The position numbers were made by a program, and so were the translations under genes. The notes beneath the pieces are model-generated. The model made no database searches and was not told the origin of the DNA. It was given only the letters and a program-made list of their open reading frames with translations. This document shows, one piece after another, positions 6,958 to 28,871 of a stretch of 64,000 bases of DNA. Positions within the stretch are counted from its first letter, which is position 1, and each line of letters begins with the position of its first letter. The DNA is from Candidatus Micrarchaeota archaeon CG10_big_fil_rev_8_21_14_0_10_45_29 (lineage in GTDB: Archaea > Micrarchaeota > Micrarchaeia > Anstonellales > Anstonellaceae): assembly GCA_002778455.1 (NCBI GenBank), contig PFCD01000012.1, forward strand, positions 1,444-65,443, given 5' to 3'.

Positions 6958-7806
6958 ATGGCAAATTACGCATACAACGAAAAAGAGAAGGGCATTGCGC
7001 TTGCGCGCGTCAACTCGGTTGACGCCAGCTACCGCGATTTGTGCAACGTATGCTCAAACATAAGGGGAAGGCGCGCGGACGCGGCGCTTATGTTTTTGAC
7101 AACCGCGCTTGAGGAAAAACGCCCGATTCGCTATCCCCGCCACAACAAGAGGCGAGGGCATGTGCGCTCTTTGGGGGGCAAAAAGGGAGGATGCCCTGTA
7201 AAATCCATAAAAATAGTGCTCAACGTTTTGCAAAACGCAGTTGCAAATGCAAACGCAAAAGGGCTTGGCGACTGCAAAATAATTCACATAGCGGCAAACA
7301 AGCAGGATGTTTTTGCAAGAATGTCTGCAAAGGGAAGGCGCATGCGCCAGGACTTTGAGAACGCGTTTGTTGAAATAGTGCTTCGCGAGCTAAAGAGCGA
7401 GGAGAACCTCCAGAAGCAAAAAGAGATAAAAAAGAAGAGAGAAGAGGCGAAGAAAGCTTTGGAGGCAAAGGCAAAAGAGCTGGAAGCAAAAAAGGCGGCT
7501 GATGCAAAAGCCGCACAAGAGAGAAAGGATGCAAAGCCGGCAGGAGGCGATGCAAAAAAAGAAACTAATGCGGATGCAAAAAAAGAAGATGAAAAGAAAG
7601 CAGCCGATGCCGCAAAAAAAGAAGATGAAAAGAAAGCAGCCGATGCCGCAAAAAAAGAAGATGAAAAGAAAGCAGCCGATGCCGCAAAAAAAGAAGAGAA
7701 AAAAGAAGCAAATGCCTCGCAGGCGCCAAGGCAGAAAATGTCTGATGTGCTCAAGCAGGCAAAAGAGAGGCCTCCTGTCAAAAAGAGCGGGAAAAATTTA
7801 AATTAA
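6958..7806 (+). CDS. rpl22: 50S ribosomal protein uL22 with ~125-aa Lys/Ala/Glu/Asp-rich C-terminal tail
   Basis: The N-terminal ~155 aa are L22-like (ARVNSVDASYRDLCNVCSNIRGR, RYPRHNKRRGH). The remainder is a low-complexity tail containing tandem KKEDEKKAADAA repeats. Confidence 0.9.
   Translation: MANYAYNEKEKGIALARVNSVDASYRDLCNVCSNIRGRRADAALMFLTTALEEKRPIRYPRHNKRRGHVRSLGGKKGGCPVKSIKIVLNVLQNAVANANAKGLGDCKIIHIAANKQDVFARMSAKGRRMRQDFENAFVEIVLRELKSEENLQKQKEIKKKREEAKKALEAKAKELEAKKAADAKAAQERKDAKPAGGDAKKETNADAKKEDEKKAADAAKKEDEKKAADAAKKEDEKKAADAAKKEEKKEANASQAPRQKMSDVLKQAKERPPVKKSGKNLN
7573..7692 (+). repeat. In-frame 36-nt tandem repeat (GATGCCGCAAAAAAAGAAGATGAAAAGAAAGCAGCC) in the rpl22 tail
   Basis: Two perfect 36-nt copies (7606-7641 and 7642-7677), a preceding 33-nt variant (7573-7605) and a partial following copy. 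Confidence 0.85.
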
Positions 7807-9930: not shown

Positions 9931-10329
9931 ATGAAAGGATTAACCACTTCGGTAACACGGTGCCTGCAGGTCGGCTCCCGCATGGCATGCAACGACAACT
10001 CCGGCGCAAAAATAGTGCAGATAATAGGAATAAAGGGCGCAAAGGCAAAGCATGCGATGTATCCAAAAGCCGGCGTGGGGGATATTGTCACCGTGTCGGT
10101 GAAAAAGGGAAAAATTTCCATGAAAGGAAAAGTGCTAAAGGCGGTAATTATACGCCAGAAAAAAATGTTCAGGCGCCCAAACGGGATGCGCATATGCTTT
10201 GAGGACAACGCAGTGGTAATAATAGATGACAACGGCCTGCCGGTAGGCACCGAAATAAAGGGCGCCATAGCGCGCGAAGTATCGGACAGGTTTCCAAAGG
10301 TGGCGGCAATCGCCCCCGCGGTAGTATAG
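9931..10329 (+). CDS. rpl14: 50S ribosomal protein uL14
   Basis: LQVGSRMACNDNSGAKIVQIIGIKG motif, 132 aa, conserved operon position. Confidence 0.95.
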   Translation: MKGLTTSVTRCLQVGSRMACNDNSGAKIVQIIGIKGAKAKHAMYPKAGVGDIVTVSVKKGKISMKGKVLKAVIIRQKKMFRRPNGMRICFEDNAVVIIDDNGLPVGTEIKGAIAREVSDRFPKVAAIAPAVV

Positions 10330-22164: not shown

Positions 22165-23025
22165 ATGGATTCTTTTCCTATTTTAAAAAACGGCTTTATT
22201 ATCCTTGACAAGCCGCGCGGGCCATCATCGCACGAGATAACCGCTTATCTGAAAAAATTAATGAAATTAAAAAGATGCGGCAATGCAGGCACTTTGGACC
22301 CGCAGGTATCCGGCGTCATGATAATCGGCATCAATAAGGCAACACGGCTTTTGCAATACGTGGTGGGAAAAGAGAAAACTTATGTCGGCGTGATGAAAAC
22401 AAAAAACTTTCCCAACAATTTGCAGGAAGTGCAAAAAGAATTTGACAAGTTTGTGGGGCTGATTTCCCAAACCCCCCCAAAACAATCGGCAGTTGCAAAA
22501 AGAAAAAGAAAAAGGCAAATATTTTATTTCAACGCCCTGGAGCTTGAGGGCAGGCACATCTTATTTGAGGCAAAAGTTGAAGCAGGCACTTACATCAGAA
22601 ATTTATGCATCGATGCAGGCAAGGCGTTTGGCGGCGGGCGAATGGTTGAATTAAGGCGCACCGCAGTGGGAAAATTCGGGGAGGAACAGTGCGTGCGCCT
22701 GCCTCGGCTGGCGGATGCGGTATGGGAATGCAAAAACAACGGCTCCTCGAGAAGCGCAGATAGCTTAATAAAGCCCTGTGAGGATATATTGATGCTTACT
22801 CGCGTTTATATAAAAAATTCTGCCGAAGAAAAGGTTTGCCGCGGCGCGCCTCTGGCGTTTCCGGGTGTGGCATCCTTCGAGGCAAATTTTAAGAAAGGCG
22901 AGAATTTGGCATTGTTTGGCAGCGAGGGTGAATTAATAGGAGTTGCCTCCGCAGCGCTGGACTCAAGCGAATCAGGTGATAATAAAATAATCGCTCGCCC
23001 GAGGACAATGATAAAAAGCATTTGA
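22165..23025 (+). CDS. cbf5: tRNA/rRNA pseudouridine synthase Cbf5 (TruB family with PUA domain)
   Basis: LDKPRGPSSHEI and GTLDPQVSGV catalytic-Asp motif, with a C-terminal PUA-like region. Confidence 0.9.
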   Translation: MDSFPILKNGFIILDKPRGPSSHEITAYLKKLMKLKRCGNAGTLDPQVSGVMIIGINKATRLLQYVVGKEKTYVGVMKTKNFPNNLQEVQKEFDKFVGLISQTPPKQSAVAKRKRKRQIFYFNALELEGRHILFEAKVEAGTYIRNLCIDAGKAFGGGRMVELRRTAVGKFGEEQCVRLPRLADAVWECKNNGSSRSADSLIKPCEDILMLTRVYIKNSAEEKVCRGAPLAFPGVASFEANFKKGENLALFGSEGELIGVASAALDSSESGDNKIIARPRTMIKSI

Positions 23026-23075
23026 AATCATTTGCATGGAAGCGAAAATTGATTTGAATCCGAAATTACATTTAT

Positions 23076-23215
23076 GCCGGGATCGCATAACCTGGTAGTG
23101 CGCACGCCTGGAAGAGCTTTTCTTTTCTTTAGAAGAAAAGAAAACCTCGGAAAAGAAAAGAATCCTGGGAGCGTGTTCCCGCAAGGGTTTGTGGGTTCAA
23201 ATCCCACTTCCGGCG
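23076..23215 (+). tRNA. tRNA-Ser (anticodon GGA) with a 56-nt intron at the canonical 37/38 position
   Basis: Hand-folded. Acceptor GCCGGGA/TTCCGGC (one G-U pair). D arm GCAT..GTGC. Anticodon stem CACGC/GCGTG. Loop CTGGAA then intron then A. Long variable arm CCC-GCAA-GGG. T arm GTGGG-TTCAAAT-CCCAC. Discriminator G. No encoded CCA. Confidence 0.8.
23114..23169 (+). other. tRNA-Ser intron
   Basis: Needed to join the anticodon-stem halves. Contains a perfect 12-bp A/T/C hairpin TTTTCTTTTCTT-TAG-AAGAAAAGAAAA. The bulge-helix-bulge geometry was not verified, so boundaries are good to within a few nt. Confidence 0.6.
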
Positions 23216-23369
23216 TACAAACGCCTTCAGTGGTTTTGCGCTTTGCGCAAAATCTCTCCAGCCCTTCGGGCTGAAGATCCCACTTCCGGCGTACAAACGC
23301 CTTCAGTGGTTTTTTGCCGATGCAAAAAATCGCCCCAAACCTAGCGGTTTGAGGCTCCCACTTCCGGCG
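23201..23369 (+). repeat. Tandem re-occurrence of the tRNA-Ser 3' end plus trailer
   Basis: The 37-mer ATCCCACTTCCGGCGTACAAACGCCTTCAGTGGTTTT occurs at 23201-23237 (overlapping the tRNA 3' end) and at 23277-23313. The 14-nt core TCCCACTTCCGGCG occurs again at 23356-23369. Confidence 0.85.
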
Positions 23370-23375
23370 CCCATG

Positions 23376-23386
23376 TTTATAAAAAA
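23376..23386 (+). promoter_or_regulatory. Candidate TATA box (TTTATAAAAAA) for the rps13 operon
   Basis: A/T box 40-50 nt upstream of the rps13 start. Inferred from sequence only. Confidence 0.35.
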
Positions 23387-23425
23387 TGTTTGTAAAAAAA
23401 TTGGAAAAAAATTTATGGTGATAGG

Positions 23426-24037
23426 ATGGGAATGGCAAAAAAAGCAGAAAAAAAACCTAAAGGAAAACGCCCGCAGGAGCAGGAAATGCGCGTTCCGACC
23501 TCTGTTGACGGAAAAGAATTGAGGGGAATCGTGCGCATAGCCGGAAGAGACCTCAAGGGGCACTGGAAGCTCACGCGCGCATTGCAGACGATAAAAGGGC
23601 TTGGCCCCTCAATAGGCAAAGTTCTCTCAAAGGCGGTAATAACCCAGCTCTCATTAACCAACAAGACGCTTGTAGGGGAGTTGAGCGAGAAACAGGTGGA
23701 GCAAATAGAGCAAATAATCTCAAATCCCTCAAAATGCGGAGTTGCAGACTTTATGCTAAACAGGCAAAGGGATTATGTCGGAGGAAAGCCGCATCATCTC
23801 ATCTCAACCGATCTGGCTTATGCAATAAAGCAGGATATTGACCATGAAAAAGATTCACAGACATGGAAAGGTTACAGGCATTCATACGGGCAGCCGGTGC
23901 GGGGGCAGAGAACCCGCACAACCGGAAGAAAAGGCATGTCTGTCGGTGTCATGAAGAAGGCCGCAAAGGCGGGAGCCGCCGCGGCATCAGCCGCAACCGG
24001 AGCCGACAAAGGCAAGGAAAAGGCGGAGAAGAAGTAG
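23426..24037 (+). CDS. rps13: 30S ribosomal protein uS13
   Basis: IVRIAGRDLKGHWKLTRALQTIKGLG core with Lys/Ala-rich N- and C-terminal extensions. Alternative starts at 23432 and at an internal MRVPTS. Confidence 0.9.
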   Translation: MGMAKKAEKKPKGKRPQEQEMRVPTSVDGKELRGIVRIAGRDLKGHWKLTRALQTIKGLGPSIGKVLSKAVITQLSLTNKTLVGELSEKQVEQIEQIISNPSKCGVADFMLNRQRDYVGGKPHHLISTDLAYAIKQDIDHEKDSQTWKGYRHSYGQPVRGQRTRTTGRKGMSVGVMKKAAKAGAAAASAATGADKGKEKAEKK

Positions 24038-24046
24038 GTGATATGA

Positions 24047-24631
24047 ATGGGTGACCCAAAAAGACGACGTCCAAAAGCACAGGCTCCGCGAAAGGTTTGG
24101 GATTCTGACAGGATTAAGGAAGAATCAACTCTAAGGCGGGAATACGGGCTTAGAAGGACTCGCGAACTCTGGACAACTATGGCAGGATTAAAATCTTTAA
24201 GAAATGCGGCAAGGCAGCTTCTCTCCTTGGGAGATGAGGGTGAGCGAAGAGGCAGAACACTTGTTGATAAGCTAAAGCGCATCGGCATTGCCAAAAAGGA
24301 CATGACATTGGACGACATTCTTGCCCTTTCCGTGCGCGACTTTCTTGAGAGGCGGCTGCAGACGCTTGTGCTAAAGCGCGGGCTTGCAAGAACCCCTGCG
24401 CAGGCAAGGCAGCTTATTGTGCACGGCTTTATTTCCGTTGGCGGCAGGAGGGTAAATATTCCCTCATATGTTGTGAATGCAAAAGAGGAGAGCACAATCT
24501 CATACTTTAAGGCAATAGACATCAGCATTCCCGAGGAGGAAAAGCAGGAGAAGCCCTCGCGCGCAAAGGCGGAAGAGGCTCCTGCAAAAGAGGGTGCGCC
24601 CGCCCTTGAAGCAAAAGCGGAGGGCAATTAG
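24047..24631 (+). CDS. rps4: 30S ribosomal protein uS4
   Basis: [16 protein letters not shown]-terminus and S4 domain [40 protein letters not shown]. Confidence 0.93.
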
Positions 24632-24640
24632 GTGATACTT

Positions 24641-25288
24641 ATGGCAGAGACACAAAATGAAAAGCCGGCGGAAACAGGGCAAAAATCAGCAAAAAACGAT
24701 GCTGCAAAACCAATCGCAGAGCCAAAGGGCTCTTCGGCAGAAAAGGCAGCCTCTTTGGAAAAAACCGGGGTGAAGCCAGATACGCCGCCGCAAAAGCCGG
24801 CAGAAGCTGAGCGCAGAACGCCTTCGTTTTCAGGCTCCAGGCGCGATGAAGGGCGCCCGCGCTTTGGCAGGGGAAGAATGCCTATCCGAAACTATGCGCA
24901 AGGCCCGATAAAATGGGCGGTTTGCAATGTATTCTCCTCAAAAAACAACACAATAATCACAATAACCGACCTCTCCGGCGCCGAAACTCTCTCAAAAGGG
25001 ACTGGAGGCATGATAGTTAAAGCCGACAGGGAGGAGGGAAAGCCATACGCGGCAATGCAGGCGACAATACGCGCAGTAGCCGAGGCAAAAACAAGAGGGA
25101 TAACCGGATTGCATATAAGGATTCGCGCCCCAGGGGGGCATGGCACAAAGACGCCCGGCGCAGGAGCGCAGGCAGTTGTGCGAACCGTTGCGCGCCAGGG
25201 AGTGCGGGTTGGAAAAATCGAGGACGTAACTCCTGTTCCGACAGACACTACAAAAAGGCCGGGCGGAAGAAGAGGAAGGCGAGTATAA
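24641..25288 (+). CDS. rps11: 30S ribosomal protein uS11 with ~85-aa Pro/Ala/Lys/Glu N-terminal extension
   Basis: Core [28 protein letters not shown]...[19 protein letters not shown]. The frame is open from the rps4 stop. An internal ATG at 24878 would give a conventional-length protein. Confidence 0.88.
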
Positions 25289-25301
25289 AGGGGGTTTTGT
25301 T

Positions 25302-25898
25302 ATGAAATTAAGCATAAAAAACGAGGACAAAACAAAGATGGACTTTTTGCTCAAGTCAACATCTGTCTCCTTTGCAAACCTTCTAAGGCGCTTTGTAATG
25401 AGCAGGGTGCCTGTGTTTGCAATAGACTCTGTAACATTTTATGAGAATTCAAGCCCTCTCTTTGACGAGTATATTGCGCACCGCATAGGAATGGTTCCCC
25501 TTAAATTGGGCACCGGAGTGCGCGATGAGGAGGAAGTGCTTTTCTCGCTTGACGCATCAGGCCCGGGAACTGTCCATTCATCGGCGCTCAAAAGCAGAAT
25601 GGATAAAATAAAAGTTGCAACAGAGAAAATACCTCTTCTCAAGCTTCTTGAGGGGCAGAATTTGCGCCTTGAGGCAAAGGCAATAAGCGGAATCGGCAGG
25701 GACCACGCCAAATACCAGGCAGGGCTTGCCTCATATAATATACTTGAGGGCGGAAACGACTTTGAGTTTGAAATTGAGAGTTTTATGCAGATTTCTCCGC
25801 GCGACATGGCGTTAAAATCCGCGGATGCAATATCGCAAAGGTGCACAGAGCTTGCAAAAGGGCTCAATGAGATAAAAAAGGAGGCAAAGAAGAAATAA
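25302..25898 (+). CDS. rpoD: DNA-directed RNA polymerase subunit D (Rpo3), short form
   Basis: FANLLRRFVMSRVPVFAIDSVTFYENSSPLFDEYIAHRIGMVPL is the Rpo3/RpoA-like dimerisation domain. Conserved position after rps11. No Cys cluster, so no Fe-S domain. Confidence 0.88.
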   Translation: MKLSIKNEDKTKMDFLLKSTSVSFANLLRRFVMSRVPVFAIDSVTFYENSSPLFDEYIAHRIGMVPLKLGTGVRDEEEVLFSLDASGPGTVHSSALKSRMDKIKVATEKIPLLKLLEGQNLRLEAKAISGIGRDHAKYQAGLASYNILEGGNDFEFEIESFMQISPRDMALKSADAISQRCTELAKGLNEIKKEAKKK

Positions 25899-25907
25899 TA
25901 TTTGCAT

Positions 25908-25992
25908 GCAGGGGTAGCAAAGCCTGGTCAAACGCGCTAGCTTGAGGGGCTAGTCACTTAGGTGTTCGTGGGTTCAAATCCCTCCCCCTGCA
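25908..25992 (+). tRNA. tRNA-Leu (anticodon GAG)
   Basis: Hand-folded. Acceptor GCAGGGG/CCCCTGC. Anticodon arm CTAGC-TTGAGGG-GCTAG. Long variable arm. T arm GTGGG-TTCAAAT-CCCTC with one U-U mismatch. Discriminator A. Followed by a T6 run. Confidence 0.8.
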
Positions 25993-25995
25993 AGC

Positions 25996-26018
25996 TTTTT
26001 TCTGCGGAGCAGAAAAAA
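25996..26018 (+). terminator. Stem-loop TTTTTTCTGC-GGA-GCAGAAAAAA directly after tRNA-Leu
   Basis: 10-bp perfect stem whose 5' arm is the oligo-T run. Plausibly an archaeal termination signal. Confidence 0.45.
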
Positions 26019-26163
26019 CCTTGGAAAATCGGCAAACGTCGGCAATGCCAGCTTAAAACAAGTGGATGGAAAAACTGGAAAACATTGGCAATGCCCGCGC
26101 AACACAAATGCAGAAAAAAGAAAATTGCAAGAAAAAGAAAAAATAATTTTAAAGAAATTATAG

Positions 26164-26484
26164 GTGAAAAATATGAAAAGAGCGAACAACAAAACAAGTG
26201 CAGGCTTTTGGAAAAGGGCAGATGACGCCCTCTCAAAGCCGGTGCGAGCTCGCAAGGCAATGAACCTCAGCAGGCTTTCAAGGATAACCAAGAAAGACGA
26301 AATGGTATTAATTGCGGGCAAAGTGCTCGGAGACGGGGAGCTTTCCCACCCCCTCACAATCGCAGCGCTGGGCTTTAGCAAAAGCGCATTGGATGCGATA
26401 AAAAGGGCGGGCGGAAAAATAGCCACAGTGGCGCAGTTGCGGGAAAAAAACCCCAAAGGAGAGGGGCTGAGGATTCTTATCTAG
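26164..26484 (+). CDS. rpl18e: 50S ribosomal protein eL18
   Basis: RADDALSKPVRARKAMNLSRLSRITKKDEMVLIAGKVLGDG motif. GTG start, with an alternative ATG at 26173. Confidence 0.9.
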   Translation: MKNMKRANNKTSAGFWKRADDALSKPVRARKAMNLSRLSRITKKDEMVLIAGKVLGDGELSHPLTIAALGFSKSALDAIKRAGGKIATVAQLREKNPKGEGLRILI

Positions 26485-26919
26485 GTGAGCATTATGAAAA
26501 TTTATGACGGAAACTCCCTCATCGCAGGAAGGCTTGCGGCAAAAGTCGCAAAAGACCTTATACACGGCGAAGAGGTTGCGGTAATAAACGCAAACGGGAT
26601 AGTGTTTAGCGGAAACCCGGCTGCTTATGTGGACCGCCTGCAAAGAAAGCGCAGGCTGACCGACAAGCGGGACCCTGAAAAGGCGGAAAAATTCCCGCGC
26701 GTTCCATATATGCTATTCAAAAAAACTGTGCGCGGAATGCTTCCAAAAAAAAGCCAGAGGGGAAGGGACGCGCTCAAGAAGCTAAAAGTTTACAATGGCG
26801 CTCCGGCGGAAATTGACGCCTCAAATGCTTTGCGCCCGCAGGATGCGCAGAAAACCGGGCTTCTCAAAAGCATAACGCTCGGAAACCTTTGCAAGGCATT
26901 CGGATACAAGAGCAGGTGA
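26485..26919 (+). CDS. rpl13: 50S ribosomal protein uL13
   Basis: IYDGNSLIAGRLAAKVAKDL and MLPKKSQRGRDALKKLKVY motifs. GTG start, with an alternative ATG at 26494. Confidence 0.92.
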   Translation: MSIMKIYDGNSLIAGRLAAKVAKDLIHGEEVAVINANGIVFSGNPAAYVDRLQRKRRLTDKRDPEKAEKFPRVPYMLFKKTVRGMLPKKSQRGRDALKKLKVYNGAPAEIDASNALRPQDAQKTGLLKSITLGNLCKAFGYKSR

Positions 26920-27359
26920 TGGTTATGGCAGCAAAAAAGAAAAAAACAAAATCAAAAAAGAAGGCGGGGATAGTTGCCCGAGGCAAGAGGAAAGAGAGCC
27001 TTGCGCGCGCCTCCATTTGCGAAGGCAAGGGAGTTGTTCGCATAAACTCGCACAACCTCAATGCAATCTCAAACCGCTACATAAAGGTGCTTATCAGCGA
27101 GCCGCTCTCAATAGCATCCGAACTCTCGCCCAAGGTTGACATTTCAGTCAATGTGCGCGGAGGCGGCGCGATGGGGCAGGCGCAGGCGGTAAGGCTTGCG
27201 GTCGCCCGCGCGCTTGTAGCATTTTCAAACGACCCCTCGCTCAAGGAGAGGATGCTTGAGCGCGACAAATTTTTGGTCGCGGAAGATTCAAGGCGTATTG
27301 AGCCCAAAAAATATATGGGGCCAAAAGCGCGTGCAAGAAAGCAAAAATCATACAGATAG
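26919..27359 (+). CDS. rps9: 30S ribosomal protein uS9
   Basis: ARGKRKESLARASI and GGGAMGQAQAVRLAVARAL motifs, with C-terminal KQKSYR. The ATG overlaps the rpl13 TGA by 1 nt. Confidence 0.92.
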   Translation: MVMAAKKKKTKSKKKAGIVARGKRKESLARASICEGKGVVRINSHNLNAISNRYIKVLISEPLSIASELSPKVDISVNVRGGGAMGQAQAVRLAVARALVAFSNDPSLKERMLERDKFLVAEDSRRIEPKKYMGPKARARKQKSYR

Positions 27360-27367
27360 GTGGATAT

Positions 27368-27565
27368 ATGTATTTTCCAATAAGATGTTTTACATGCGGC
27401 GCGCCGATTGCGCAGCATTGGGAGGAATACAACTCCCGCACAAAATCCGGAGACGAGCCTGCCAAGGTGCTCGATGACCTTGGCGTAAAGCGGGTTTGCT
27501 GCAGGCGCATGTTCATTTCGCATGTAGAAGTGATGGACAAGGTGGCGAAATACGACCGCCTATGA
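27368..27565 (+). CDS. rpoN: DNA-directed RNA polymerase subunit N (Rpo10)
   Basis: PIRCFTCGAPIA...KRVCCRRM zinc-bundle motif, 65 aa. Confidence 0.92.
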   Translation: MYFPIRCFTCGAPIAQHWEEYNSRTKSGDEPAKVLDDLGVKRVCCRRMFISHVEVMDKVAKYDRL

Positions 27566-27638
27566 GTTGATAAAAAAATTAATTTGGGGCCCGCTTGCCC
27601 TTTTTGGGCAAGGATCCCACAAAATACATTTGCATTTT

Positions 27639-27711
27639 GGGGCTGTGAGGTAATCTGGTATCCTGCCGGCATGGGGTGCCGGCTATCCGAGTTCAAATCT
27701 TGGCGGCCCCA
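27639..27711 (+). tRNA. tRNA-Pro (anticodon GGG)
   Basis: Hand-folded. Acceptor GGGGCTG/CGGCCCC (one G-U pair). Anticodon arm CCGGC-ATGGGGT-GCCGG. T arm CCGAG-TTCAAAT-CTTGG. Discriminator A. No encoded CCA. Confidence 0.82.
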
Positions 27712-27818
27712 AGTTGTTATAAGAAAATATGCGGGACCGCCATTTCGCTTTCGGCGAAATCCGCCCAACGCTTGCGCGTTGAGCGTCTTGGCGGCCCCAA
27801 GTTATTATAAGAAAATAT
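27698..27818 (+). repeat. Duplication of the tRNA-Pro 3' end plus trailer
   Basis: The 33-mer TCTTGGCGGCCCCAAGTTGTTATAAGAAAATAT at 27698-27730 (overlapping the tRNA 3' end) recurs at 27786-27818 with one G-to-A change. The 55-nt spacer is built of two hairpins. Confidence 0.85.
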
Positions 27819-27920
27819 TCGCAAGTGTTTTTCCGAGAGTAGCCCCGAACCGCTAAGGAGGGCACATCCCCCCGAAACAGTTTGAGAGTGTTTGCGGAAC
27901 TCTTGCAAAGGTGATTTAAA

Positions 27921-28871
27921 ATGGCAGACGGAATGTTGATAAAGCAGGAAAAATACCTGGAAACAGGAATACACATAGGCACAAAGCTGCGCACCATCGA
28001 TATGGCGCGATTTATTTACCGCACAAGAAACGACGGATTATATGTGCTTGACCTCAGGCAGGTTGATGAAAAGATACGCCTTGCAGGCAAAGTTATCTGC
28101 AAATTCGAGCCGGCAGAAATAGTGGTTGTGGCAAGCAGAACCTACTCTTCAATGGCGGCAAAGGCGTTTGCACAAATTTCAGGGTGCAAAGTAATCGGCG
28201 GAAGGTTTGTTCCCGGCGCATTTACCAATGTGGCAAGGTCGGATTTTGTTGAGCCAAAGCTTGTAATAATTTGCGACCCAAAGGGCGAGAGGCAGGCCGT
28301 AGTGGAGTGCGGCAAGATGGGAATTCCCACAATAGGGCTGTGCGACACAGACAATTTCACAATGTTCATAGACTGGGCAATACCATGCAATAACAAGGGA
28401 AGGCGCTCGCTCTCCTTAATATTCTGGCTTCTTGCAAGAGAAATGGCAATGGGCTCAGGCAAAGTGTCTTCATATGATGACTTTACTCCGACATTTGAGG
28501 AGTTTGAAACAATTGCAGGCGCAATAGCGGACGAGGAGATGGCTCAAAAGCACGGCAAAAAGCCGGGTCCCGGGCCTGCAGTTCCCTCCGCGGGCGGGGA
28601 TGATTCCTCCGGCGGGGAAAAAGAGGAAGATGCGCCAGAGCCTTCGGAAGAAAAAGAGGATGCAACAAAAAATTCCGAAGACGAGGGCAAAAAGCCCAAA
28701 AAAGCAAAGGCAAAAAAGGCAGTAAAAAAGGCAGAAGAGAAAAAGCCTGAGCCAAAAAAAGAAGACGAGAAAAAGCCCGCCAAGCAGGATGAAAAAAAGC
28801 CTGAGACAAAAAAAGCGGCGGAAAAGCCTGTTAAGGAAGAGGGCACCGATGCAACTAAAGAGGAGAAATAA
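27921..28871 (+). CDS. rps2: 30S ribosomal protein uS2 with ~105-aa Lys/Glu/Pro/Asp-rich C-terminal tail
   Basis: YLETGIHIGTKLRT and VIICDPKGERQAVVECGKMGIPTIGLCDTDN core, then a KKPKKAKAKKAVKKAEEKKPEPKKEDEKKP-type tail. Confidence 0.92.
   Translation: MADGMLIKQEKYLETGIHIGTKLRTIDMARFIYRTRNDGLYVLDLRQVDEKIRLAGKVICKFEPAEIVVVASRTYSSMAAKAFAQISGCKVIGGRFVPGAFTNVARSDFVEPKLVIICDPKGERQAVVECGKMGIPTIGLCDTDNFTMFIDWAIPCNNKGRRSLSLIFWLLAREMAMGSGKVSSYDDFTPTFEEFETIAGAIADEEMAQKHGKKPGPGPAVPSAGGDDSSGGEKEEDAPEPSEEKEDATKNSEDEGKKPKKAKAKKAVKKAEEKKPEPKKEDEKKPAKQDEKKPETKKAAEKPVKEEGTDATKEEK

Follow-up and report, generated by a model that had tools for sequence, protein, structure and literature searches.

Spare copies of the tRNA 3' end in structured trailer modules behind tRNA-Ser(GGA) and tRNA-Pro(GGG) genes of Micrarchaeota, and their possible role as alternative 3' exons

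Noncanonical introns are documented at position 59/60 of tRNAs from ARMAN-2 (Micrarchaeum), and in vitro, the epsilon2 splicing endonuclease cleaves the relaxed hBH/BHL motif of this site (PMC3239211). The origin of archaeal tRNA introns is an open question (PMC4090602), and the only concrete model invokes integrating elements (PMC3293823). Here, we describe a family of structured trailer modules that bears on this question. The modules lie in a 64,000-nucleotide stretch of DNA, here referred to as the window, which is part of the core chromosome of a Micrarchaeota (DPANN) archaeon from groundwater/aquifer metagenomes. In this window, the tRNA-Ser(GGA) gene is followed by two spare copies of its own 3' end, i.e., nucleotides (nt) 60 to 73, and the tRNA-Pro(GGG) gene is followed by one. 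The modules are a lineage-specific family found in the 3' trailers of tRNA-Ser(GGA) and tRNA-Pro(GGG) in one Micrarchaeota clade; no description of such a family was found in the literature searched, and it appears to be undescribed.

Several described systems share features with these modules. The 59/60 introns with a relaxed bulge-helix-bulge (BHB) motif, known from ARMAN-2/Micrarchaeota and Crenarchaeota (PMC3239211), occur in the same phylum and at the same position; removal of the modules would leave an intact tRNA, and the modules could form the T-stem, the 3-nt bulge, and the 4-bp helix with T-loop nt 54 to 57. Unlike these introns, however, the putative module intron opens with a complete, functional 3' exon plus trailer, so that the gene works unspliced, and only half of the BHB motif is recognizable, with splicing being a prediction. 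According to the account given in PMC4090602, the transposed tRNA introns of Thermoproteales (Fujishima 2010) are, like the modules, related insertions that share one position across different tRNAs of a genome, and the integration model for Caldiarchaeum (Sugahara 2012, PMC3293823) similarly ties the duplication of tRNA fragments to intron gain. In contrast to both, the module insert carries tRNA-specific strands, namely, the spare 3' end and an anti-acceptor strand (P1'), and no element with a recombinase accompanies it. The attachment (att) repeats of SSV-type and pNOB8-type integrases resemble the modules in an identity that begins in the T-loop and continues past the tRNA 3' end, in a possible tandem arrangement by accretion, and in their patchy occurrence. 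However, the module repeats lie 76 to 88 nt and not kilobases apart, they enclose a conserved, folded stretch of 39 to 52 nt that pairs with the repeat, and the spare copies are under purifying constraint. As in intrinsic or bidirectional terminators, there are a hairpin and a U-run on both strands, and the arrays lie between a tRNA gene and the next promoter, whereas in the modules the U-run and the A-run pair with each other in a hairpin (P2) and the last spare copy has no terminator. Finally, the split and tri-split tRNAs of Nanoarchaeum and Caldivirga also involve extra or shared tRNA 3' segments, joined through BHB motifs, but the spare pieces of the modules comprise only nt 60 to 73 and lie in cis directly behind a complete gene, with no orphan 5' fragments known.

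Architecture and fold of the modules

Behind tRNA-Ser, the 37-mer ATCCCACTTCCGGCGTACAAACGCCTTCAGTGGTTTT occurs exactly at positions 23201-23237 and 23277-23313, and the 14-mer TCCCACTTCCGGCG is found, again exactly, at 23202, 23278, and 23356. In a shuffle control that allowed up to 2 mismatches, 0.25 matches were expected and 0/100 shuffles reached 4. In the array, the copies of the tRNA 3' end (n+1) outnumber the anti-acceptor strands (n) by one (Table 1). The first of the P1' strands has two potential partners, A1, with which it forms a local hairpin followed by U4, and A2, with which it forms the junction stem P1. Each spacer together with the next copy (~75 nt) folds into a three-way junction built from P1', the U-run/A-run hairpin P2, the GC hairpin P3, and tRNA nt 60 to 73. 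In the Ser units, which are 76 and 78 nt long, P1 consists of the trailer strand CGCC-uuc-AGUGG paired with CCACU-ucc-GGCG of the next copy, and P3 is laid out as 3 bp, a C.A mismatch, and 6 bp. At tRNA-Pro, 36 nt (27698-27733) recur 88 nt downstream with 94% identity.

Table 1. Features of the tRNA-Ser and tRNA-Pro loci (positions in the window)
Feature	Position	Strand	Remarks
tRNA-Ser(GGA), archaeal type	23076-23215	+	Rfam tRNA, 39.2 bits with insertion; ARAGORN -i; sequence read directly
tRNA-Ser exon 1	23076-23113	+	read directly
tRNA-Ser anticodon-loop (37/38) intron, 56 nt	23114-23169	+	ARAGORN -i, read directly
tRNA-Ser exon 2	23170-23215	+	read directly
A1, genuine tRNA 3' end, nt 60 to 73	23202-23215	+	U60, T-stem 3' strand CCCAC, acceptor 3' strand UUCCGGC, discriminator G
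Linker UACAAA and P1'(1) CGCCUUCAGUGG	23216-23233	+	P1' is the anti-acceptor strand, complementary to nt 62 to 73
P2a hairpin UUUUGCGC-UUU-GCGCAAAA	23234-23252	+	U-run/A-run pairing around a GC clamp
P3a hairpin UCU-C-CAGCCC-UUC-GGGCUG-A-AGA	23255-23277	+	conserved C.A mismatch; 3' part UGAA-GA abuts U60 of A2
A2, spare copy of nt 60 to 73	23278-23291	+	14/14 versus A1; 100% conserved in species B
Linker UACAAA and P1'(2) CGCCUUCAGUGG	23292-23309	+	
P2b hairpin UUUUUUGC-CGAU-GCAAAAAA	23310-23329	+	
P3b hairpin GCC-C-CAAACC-UAGC-GGUUUG-A-GGC	23332-23355	+	3' part UGAG-GC precedes U60 of A3
A3, second spare copy of nt 60 to 73	23356-23369	+	14/14; no trailer copy behind; closes junction 2
S13 operon promoter region (inferred)	23373-23425	+	TATA-like TTTATAAA / TTTGTAAA, Shine-Dalgarno GGTGAT; from sequence
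tRNA-Leu P2-like trailer hairpin (U6/A6)	25991-26023		tRNA-Leu without repeat
tRNA-Pro(GGG)	27639-27711	+	nt 60 to 73 at 27698-27711
tRNA-Pro module	27712-27785	+	trailer B, P1', P2, P3
tRNA-Pro trailer B	27712-27730	+	
tRNA-Pro P1' GGGACCGCC	27733-27741	+	
tRNA-Pro P2 AUUUCGC-UUUCG-GCGAAAU	27742-27760	+	
tRNA-Pro P3 CGC-C-CAACGC-UUGC-GCGUUG-A-GCG	27762-27785	+	
tRNA-Pro spare copy of nt 60 to 73 (27786-27799) and trailer copy (27800-27821)	27786-27821	+	preceded by UGAG-CG

The hairpins of the individual units differ in sequence and retain their pairing. Every unit with an intact spare copy adopts the same three-way junction as its minimum-free-energy fold, with z-scores of -3.8 to -6.2 (-5.2 and -4.3 for the two Ser units of the window). 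For comparison between genomes, the lineage of the window is here called species A, and that of L015, L034, and L035, whose ribosomal protein S13 is 95% identical, is called species B. Species B has two matching Ser units, in which the changes keep every pair. Over the four Ser units of both species, 103/103 base-pair cells are paired and 6 pairs are changed on both sides, compared to 37 to 50% pairing and 0 compensatory changes in a control in which the 3' partners were slid by 1 to 3 columns. Between the species, the P2 hairpins of units 1 and 2 appear either swapped or each altered by two compensatory pairs. The 64-kb window contains exactly 3 occurrences of the P3 signature NNN-C-CA..UG-A-NNN, each of them at a module, with 0.42 expected.

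Rfam 15 matched only the tRNA, and no family rose above noise for the modules. A generic three-way-junction descriptor search was abandoned, as it gave 5 to 11 matches in shuffled sequences and missed the Ser units owing to their internal loop, and a generic search for a sequence, its reverse complement, and the sequence again (X..rc(X)..X) was noisy, yet it recovered the units of L028 and L039. Several known elements were considered by eye and rejected: a hammerhead or other ribozyme core, a K-turn, a C/D or H/ACA small RNA (ACA follows the stem in species A but does not follow A3, and there is no pocket), a retroelement primer-binding site (no CCA complement), an ORB-like origin box (similarity limited to CCAGTGG), and a trans-spliced shared 3' exon.

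These data bear out most of what had been described in the original prediction, which was made from the window's sequence alone. The perfect recurrence of the 37-mer and the third copy of its 14-nt core were found again as exact matches, and the copies do consist of the T-stem 3' strand, the acceptor 3' strand, the discriminator, and the trailer. The same holds for the hairpins in the spacers and for the repeat unit itself, which forms a 41-nt hairpin (-14.2 kcal/mol; z, -3.2) with a T-run behind it, for the ability of the trailer, through P1', to pair with the tRNA 3' strand, and for the shared architecture at tRNA-Pro, where both the repeat and the P1'-P2-P3 plan are present. The extra copies had been judged not to be tRNA genes, and in agreement with this, they were called as tRNA neither by ARAGORN, with or without introns, nor by Rfam, even at an E value of ≤10; an additional tRNA gene or pseudogene was rejected, since neither program called a cloverleaf on the units. 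What did not hold was the statement that there is essentially no cargo, as the 39- to 52-nt spacers are conserved, structured modules that close a three-way junction with the next copy. The start of the duplication at U60 and the potential T-loop pairing just before each copy, both described below, had been missed.

The array does not stem from a tandem misassembly, which the original prediction had named as something that would count against it: the array is identical in at least five independent JGI and ENA assemblies from different samples (L014 and L029 to L032), and the depth of its unique spacer piece (23208-23306) in Logan unitigs is 44.4, compared to 43.1 and 41.2 for the flanks, with no unitig joint that skips 76 nt. 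Together with the shuffle control, this excludes an assembly artifact or a chance repeat. The dimensions of the array, with a 37-nt repeat, spacers of 39 and 42 nt, and a truncated last repeat, are CRISPR-like, but only two of the repeats are complete, the hairpin-forming spacers are conserved between species, the first repeat is a tRNA end, and no cas genes were present among the open reading frames (ORFs) tested. We therefore give practically no credence to an artifact, a chance repeat, or a degenerate CRISPR-like array.

Conservation and distribution among relatives

Between species A and B, the two spare copies A2 and A3 are identical at 28/28 nt. The tRNA exons are 100% identical, the whole array is 82% identical, and the tRNA intron is 69% identical; the intergenic values are 68% upstream and 38% in the spacer behind the array. 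At a background identity of 68%, the probability of 28/28 is ~2e-5. P1' differs between the species by a U-to-C change in the loop and by a C-to-U change that gives a G.U pair, with the A copies unchanged. Since P1' varies while the A copies never do, the copies are kept to the tRNA's own sequence, beyond complementarity with P1'. In addition, perfect 37-nt direct repeats that lie 76 nt apart are expected to be prone to deletion, yet they are fixed in all assemblies and common to the two species, and this persistence argues against inert scars. Taken together, the comparison places the spare copies under strong (purifying) constraint, which likewise argues against inert scars.

The relatives identified by S13 are all Micrarchaeota metagenome-assembled genomes, and the sequencing runs that contain the sequence are groundwater metagenomes. 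The same architecture follows tRNA-Pro in L028 (S13 67% identical) and tRNA-Ser in L039 to L041 (S13 58% identical). In L069, the module is decayed, with a spare copy that matches at 10/14 positions, and L036 keeps P2 and P3 after tRNA-Pro without P1' and a spare copy. The module was not found in L001, L002, L036 (at tRNA-Ser), L070, and L072, and among close relatives the number of module inserts is 0, 1, or 2. This patchy presence indicates a family subject to gain and loss and not a universal feature. The comparison with related genomes, which had been proposed as a check on the repeats, thus finds them conserved in species B and their architecture conserved in further lineages.

The 59/60 boundary and competing explanations

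Eight units were compared at their 5' boundary, namely, Ser 1 and 2 in species A and B, Pro in species A, Pro in L028, and Ser in L039 and L069. In all of them, identity to the tRNA begins at U60, extending no more than 1 nt further 5', as chance allows, and the spare copies of species A, species B, and L028 match nt 60 to 73 at 14/14 positions. The spare copies are therefore placed at the recognized 59/60 intron position, and removal of the sequence up to them would restore a standard tRNA. In its geometry, an intron at 59/60 of the T arm corresponds to the canonical 37/38 intron of the anticodon arm: the T-stem would act as the outer helix, T-loop nt 54 to 57 (UUCA) would pair with four intron bases, and the last two intron bases plus nt 60 would make up a 3-nt bulge. 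The three spare copies of the window fit this geometry exactly (UGAA-GA/U, UGAG-GC/U, and UGAG-CG/U, where the slash marks the start of the copy). In six units, the 4 nt that lie 2 nt upstream of U60 are pairable with UUCA at 4/4, 4/4, 4/4, 2/4, 3/4, and 3/4 positions, for a P value of ~6e-6, or 3e-4 when just four lineages are counted, in a test made post hoc. When the anticodon intron was removed and the tRNA was closed on A1, A2, or A3, constrained folding gave closely similar predicted energies of -103.3, -100.3, and -105.3 kcal/mol, respectively. The 37/38 intron seen here, together with the T-loop introns that relatives have in this same tRNA-Ser, points to the probable presence of a splicing endonuclease of broad specificity (epsilon2 or alpha-beta), the gene for which does not lie in the window.

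The explanation that we favor, tentatively and at clearly less than even confidence, is that the modules are cotranscribed trailer modules whose spare 3' ends may act as alternative 3' exons, or proto-introns, that are removable as 59/60 introns. The array would be transcribed along with the tRNA, and the tRNA body could close on any of the copies. Upon closure on the first copy, each P1' would pair with the next spare copy, and the resulting inert three-way junctions would be cut off with the trailer. Upon closure on a later copy, as might occur in read-through or misfolded transcripts, the T-stem would pair with the spare copy, T-loop nt 54 to 57 (UUCA) would pair with UGAR, and 3 nt (NN plus U60) would bulge out, giving a 59/60 intron geometry with a relaxed BHB motif (HBh'/BHL); excision of 76 or 154 nt by the tRNA splicing endonuclease could follow and would leave the mature tRNA unchanged. 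With n anti-acceptor strands and n+1 3' ends, every strand would have a partner whichever copy the tRNA body uses, and this balanced set of strands would explain the bare third copy A3, which the att and terminator models do not. At the DNA level, the modules could have originated by site-specific recombination at the T-loop or by template switching, and an integrative origin followed by domestication is compatible with a role as alternative 3' exons.

A bolder proposal, which we consider unlikely, is that these loci are snapshots of the birth of archaeal tRNA introns. A site-specific duplication would set a second 3' exon (nt 60 to 73) behind a small structured insert; because the body could close on either copy, mimicry of a 59/60 BHB motif would allow the upstream copy and the insert to be spliced out, and once the redundant upstream copy had decayed, an ordinary 59/60 intron would be left. 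If true, this would provide a DNA-level mechanism for the gain and the "transposition" of tRNA introns and would account for 59/60 being a hot spot. Inserts that start exactly at 59/60 and carry a spare 3' exon and an anti-acceptor strand would make the origin of introns directly testable.

A number of observations weigh against alternative 3' exons. UGAR was noticed post hoc and is weak in L028 (2/4) and in L039 and L069 (3/4 each), and only the relaxed half of a splice motif is present (T-stem, 3-nt bulge, and 4-bp helix), and an inner helix is not convincingly seen. P3 makes use of the UG of UGAR as well, so that the junction fold and the splice fold are mutually exclusive. Since spliced and unspliced transcripts would yield the same tRNA, the presumed benefit to the cell is unclear. 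Moreover, the decay in L069 and the loss in the close relatives L001, L036, and L072 show that the module is dispensable. The repeated block includes trailer sequence that does not belong to the tRNA (22 nt for Ser, 19 nt for Pro, and 12 nt in L028), which splicing does not explain. This trailer is identical within a genome and different between genomes, a pattern that speaks for homogenization or recent re-creation and points to a process at the DNA level, for example, gene conversion or recombination. What look like compensatory changes could also come about in one step, as replication template switching can create inverted copies together with one-step "compensatory" changes (PMC8794818); the homogenized trailers and the P2 swap would fit either recombination between copies or such template switching. 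Lastly, on the minus strand, the conserved C.A mismatch of P3 would become a U.G pair.

Domesticated relics of site-specific integration are an alternative that we regard as doubtful but not far-fetched. An integrase that crossed over at the T-loop/T-stem boundary would have inserted small elements carrying the tRNA 3' end plus trailer (attP), leaving attL/attR-type repeats around a tiny retained element end (P1'-P2-P3). Tandem units would have arisen by accretion, the hairpins would be merely terminator-like or structural, and the spare copies would not take part in tRNA maturation. The classical att footprint consists of direct repeats that begin in the T-loop and extend beyond the tRNA 3' end, as is the case here; in Pyrococcus, 44-bp repeats flank a 21-kb island (PMC9897764). 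The trailer data cited above agree with this, both in the extent of the identity and in its restriction to single genomes, as expected of recombining sites, and so do the patchiness of the modules, the decayed or partial copies in L069, L003, and L018, and the published model in which integration, tRNA fragment duplication, and intron gain are connected (PMC3293823). In the Ser units, A, 6 nt, and P1' form a 12-6-12 imperfect palindrome like the core site of a tyrosine recombinase, but this geometry fails for tRNA-Pro, where 21 to 23 nt separate A from P1'; an Xer/dif-type site, considered by eye, was rejected because it fits Ser and fails for Pro. Plain nested att scars had been among the explanations put forward in the original prediction, along with a search for integrases and for viral attP sites. 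No recombinase or integrase was found among the 20 large window ORFs tested by Pfam, for which all hits were housekeeping and five ORFs had no hit. A 22-nt pattern of A plus trailer had 0 matches in viral contigs, among which mobile elements of DPANN archaea are poorly sampled, and two 16-mer scans of viral contigs gave 15 and 12 chance matches, none extending beyond the 16-mer. A 25-nt match in L052 was rejected as an attP site because it lies inside an ORF of 526 amino acids (aa). Excision or presence/absence variants were seen neither in the assemblies, of which there are at least five, nor in the unitigs, although contigs can hide rare variants. With no integrase, attP site, or excision variant found in these searches and with spare copies that are constrained, the simple scar model is not supported. 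Domesticated relics, too, have to contend with a "cargo" of 39 to 52 nt whose architecture, accompanied by base-pair covariation, is retained behind two tRNAs and across several lineages, and with A3, which is conserved at 14/14 positions and yet has no adjacent trailer or half-site.

Alternatively, the units could be tandem terminator or insulator modules that involve no splicing, which we think rather improbable. On the plus strand, the tRNA 3' strand and P1' would form a hairpin followed by a U-run, and on the minus strand, the reverse complement of P3 and the A-run would do the same; such a back-to-back stack would keep read-through and antisense transcription away from the tRNA gene and the S13/S2 promoters. 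The spare copies would then be stems rebuilt from the tRNA 3' sequence, with units multiplied by slippage and template switching. The 37-mer does fold as a hairpin followed by UUUU/UUUUUU, and the plus-strand A + P1' hairpin with its U4/U6 conforms to the intrinsic-terminator pattern, as a pattern match only. In a 5-kb scan (22900-28000), the best terminator-like site lies on the minus strand, where the reverse complement of P3b, which resembles the Spot42 terminator, is followed by GATTTTTT (GAUUUUUU). At both copies of tRNA-Pro, A plus AG gives CUUGG-CGGCC-CCAAG followed by a U-rich tail, and the repeatless tRNA-Leu has a P2-like U6/A6 hairpin in its trailer. The retention of P2 and P3 in L036 without any spare copy, the P1' of L069, which still pairs with A1 though A2 has decayed, and the location of both arrays directly upstream of a promoter are also in keeping with termination. 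However, A3 is perfectly conserved though neither P1' nor a U-run lies behind it, and a terminator predicts neither the U60 boundary nor the UGAR-NN motif. Archaeal RNA polymerase terminates at oligo-T and does not require a hairpin, and the 3' strand of a folded tRNA is not free to form the terminator stem. A minus-strand terminator would also have little to stop, as the neighboring genes are nearly all on the plus strand. The terminator-like features would nevertheless support a role in termination or insulation, as a rival or an additional function; the processing sites and the termination module named at the outset as alternatives to att scars are both possible. A third candidate, which we judge quite improbable, is that each junction mimics the "top half" of a tRNA (acceptor and T arm), so that RNase P and RNase Z would release independent tRNA-like small RNAs of ~70 nt, stable and perhaps with CCA, or would merely punctuate the transcript. 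The modules are stable, self-contained folds, P1 of the Pro units is an acceptor-like stem of 9 to 10 bp with a free discriminator, and an RNase P protein subunit (Pop4/p29) is encoded nearby. The Ser units, with their paired G73 and the 3x3 internal loop of their P1, would be poor substrates for RNase P or RNase Z, though, and such small RNAs have no match among Rfam families and leave the identity of the 3' strand to the neighboring tRNA unexplained. Even if splicing of alternative 3' exons does not take place, the modules would represent an undescribed structured RNA/DNA element of DPANN archaea and would indicate that short "att-like" tRNA repeats can be functional and not scars.

Gene neighborhood and other repeats

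The modules lie within a conserved archaeal gene cluster, in the order cbf5, tRNA-Ser, S13, S4, S11, rpoD, tRNA-Leu, L18e, L13, S9, rpoN, tRNA-Pro, and S2, and no further tRNAs were found in the ~6 to 10 kb added on both sides of the window. Default ARAGORN did not detect the tRNA-Ser gene. The intron-aware mode (-i) was needed; it placed the 56-nt intron after position 37 and mislabeled the isotype as Pro(ggg), whereas direct reading gives the anticodon GGA. The locus is thus a trap for tRNA annotation, as default tools overlook the gene and its true 3' end is ambiguous. The intron itself is a long A/U-rich hairpin whose 16-nt arms are 94% complementary and are built of CTTTTCTTTTC/GAAAAGAAAAG repeats. 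In relatives, introns of 30 to 45 nt are found in the T arm (53/54 and 56 to 58) of tRNA-Ser, tRNA-Leu, and tRNA-Pro (L004 to L013 and L037; also L028, 10230-10270). Often, they consist of a helix, a 3x3 or 4x4 internal loop, and a second helix, and several were missed or mislabeled by ARAGORN.

Shorter repeats of tRNA ends occur in other relatives. In L018 (7840-7905), 19 nt of tRNA-Leu, from about nt 58 and with 1 mismatch, recur 49 nt downstream, and in L003 (2875-2910), a 12-nt piece of the tRNA-Ser acceptor strand is repeated after a gap of 5 nt, in both cases without the three-way-junction module. In L024 (6030-6200) and L023 (4330-4420), the 5' end of tRNA-Pro (CGGGGTCAT) and an upstream ATATTAA motif are repeated 2 to 3 times, ~70 nt apart, upstream of the gene. 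Each of these copies has its own complement behind it, so that mini acceptor-stem hairpins can form, in a mirror image of the 3' arrays. Upstream of tRNA-Pro in the window (27586-27622), there is a GC-rich hairpin element, GGGGCCCG-CTTGCCC-TTTTT-GGGCAAG-GATCCCAC, the 3' end of which equals the start of the tRNA-Ser spare copy; L036 has two copies of this element at 9960-10060.

The array ends ~20 nt upstream of the putative S13 operon promoter region, the last 30 nt of which are 97% identical in species B. Within this region, the TATA-like part is duplicated in tandem at 23373-23399 (ATGTTTATAAAAA, 13 nt, 2.1 copies) in species A but not in species B. The S13 protein itself (23426-24037; 203 aa) has N- and C-terminal extensions rich in lysine and alanine, and its homologues in relatives range from ~170 to 335 aa. 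Just upstream of the window and beside the ribosomal protein cluster, L075 (3271-9182) encodes a VapB/VapC (PIN) toxin-antitoxin pair and a 1,521-aa ORF without a Pfam domain. Lastly, the L22 gene (6958-7806) contains a tandem repeat of 36 nt (12 aa, rich in K/E/A) at 7576-7710 with 3.8 copies, and its product is 282 aa long in the window, 294 aa in L075, and 258 aa in L076, from which it follows that the copy number of the repeat varies among assemblies of the same species.

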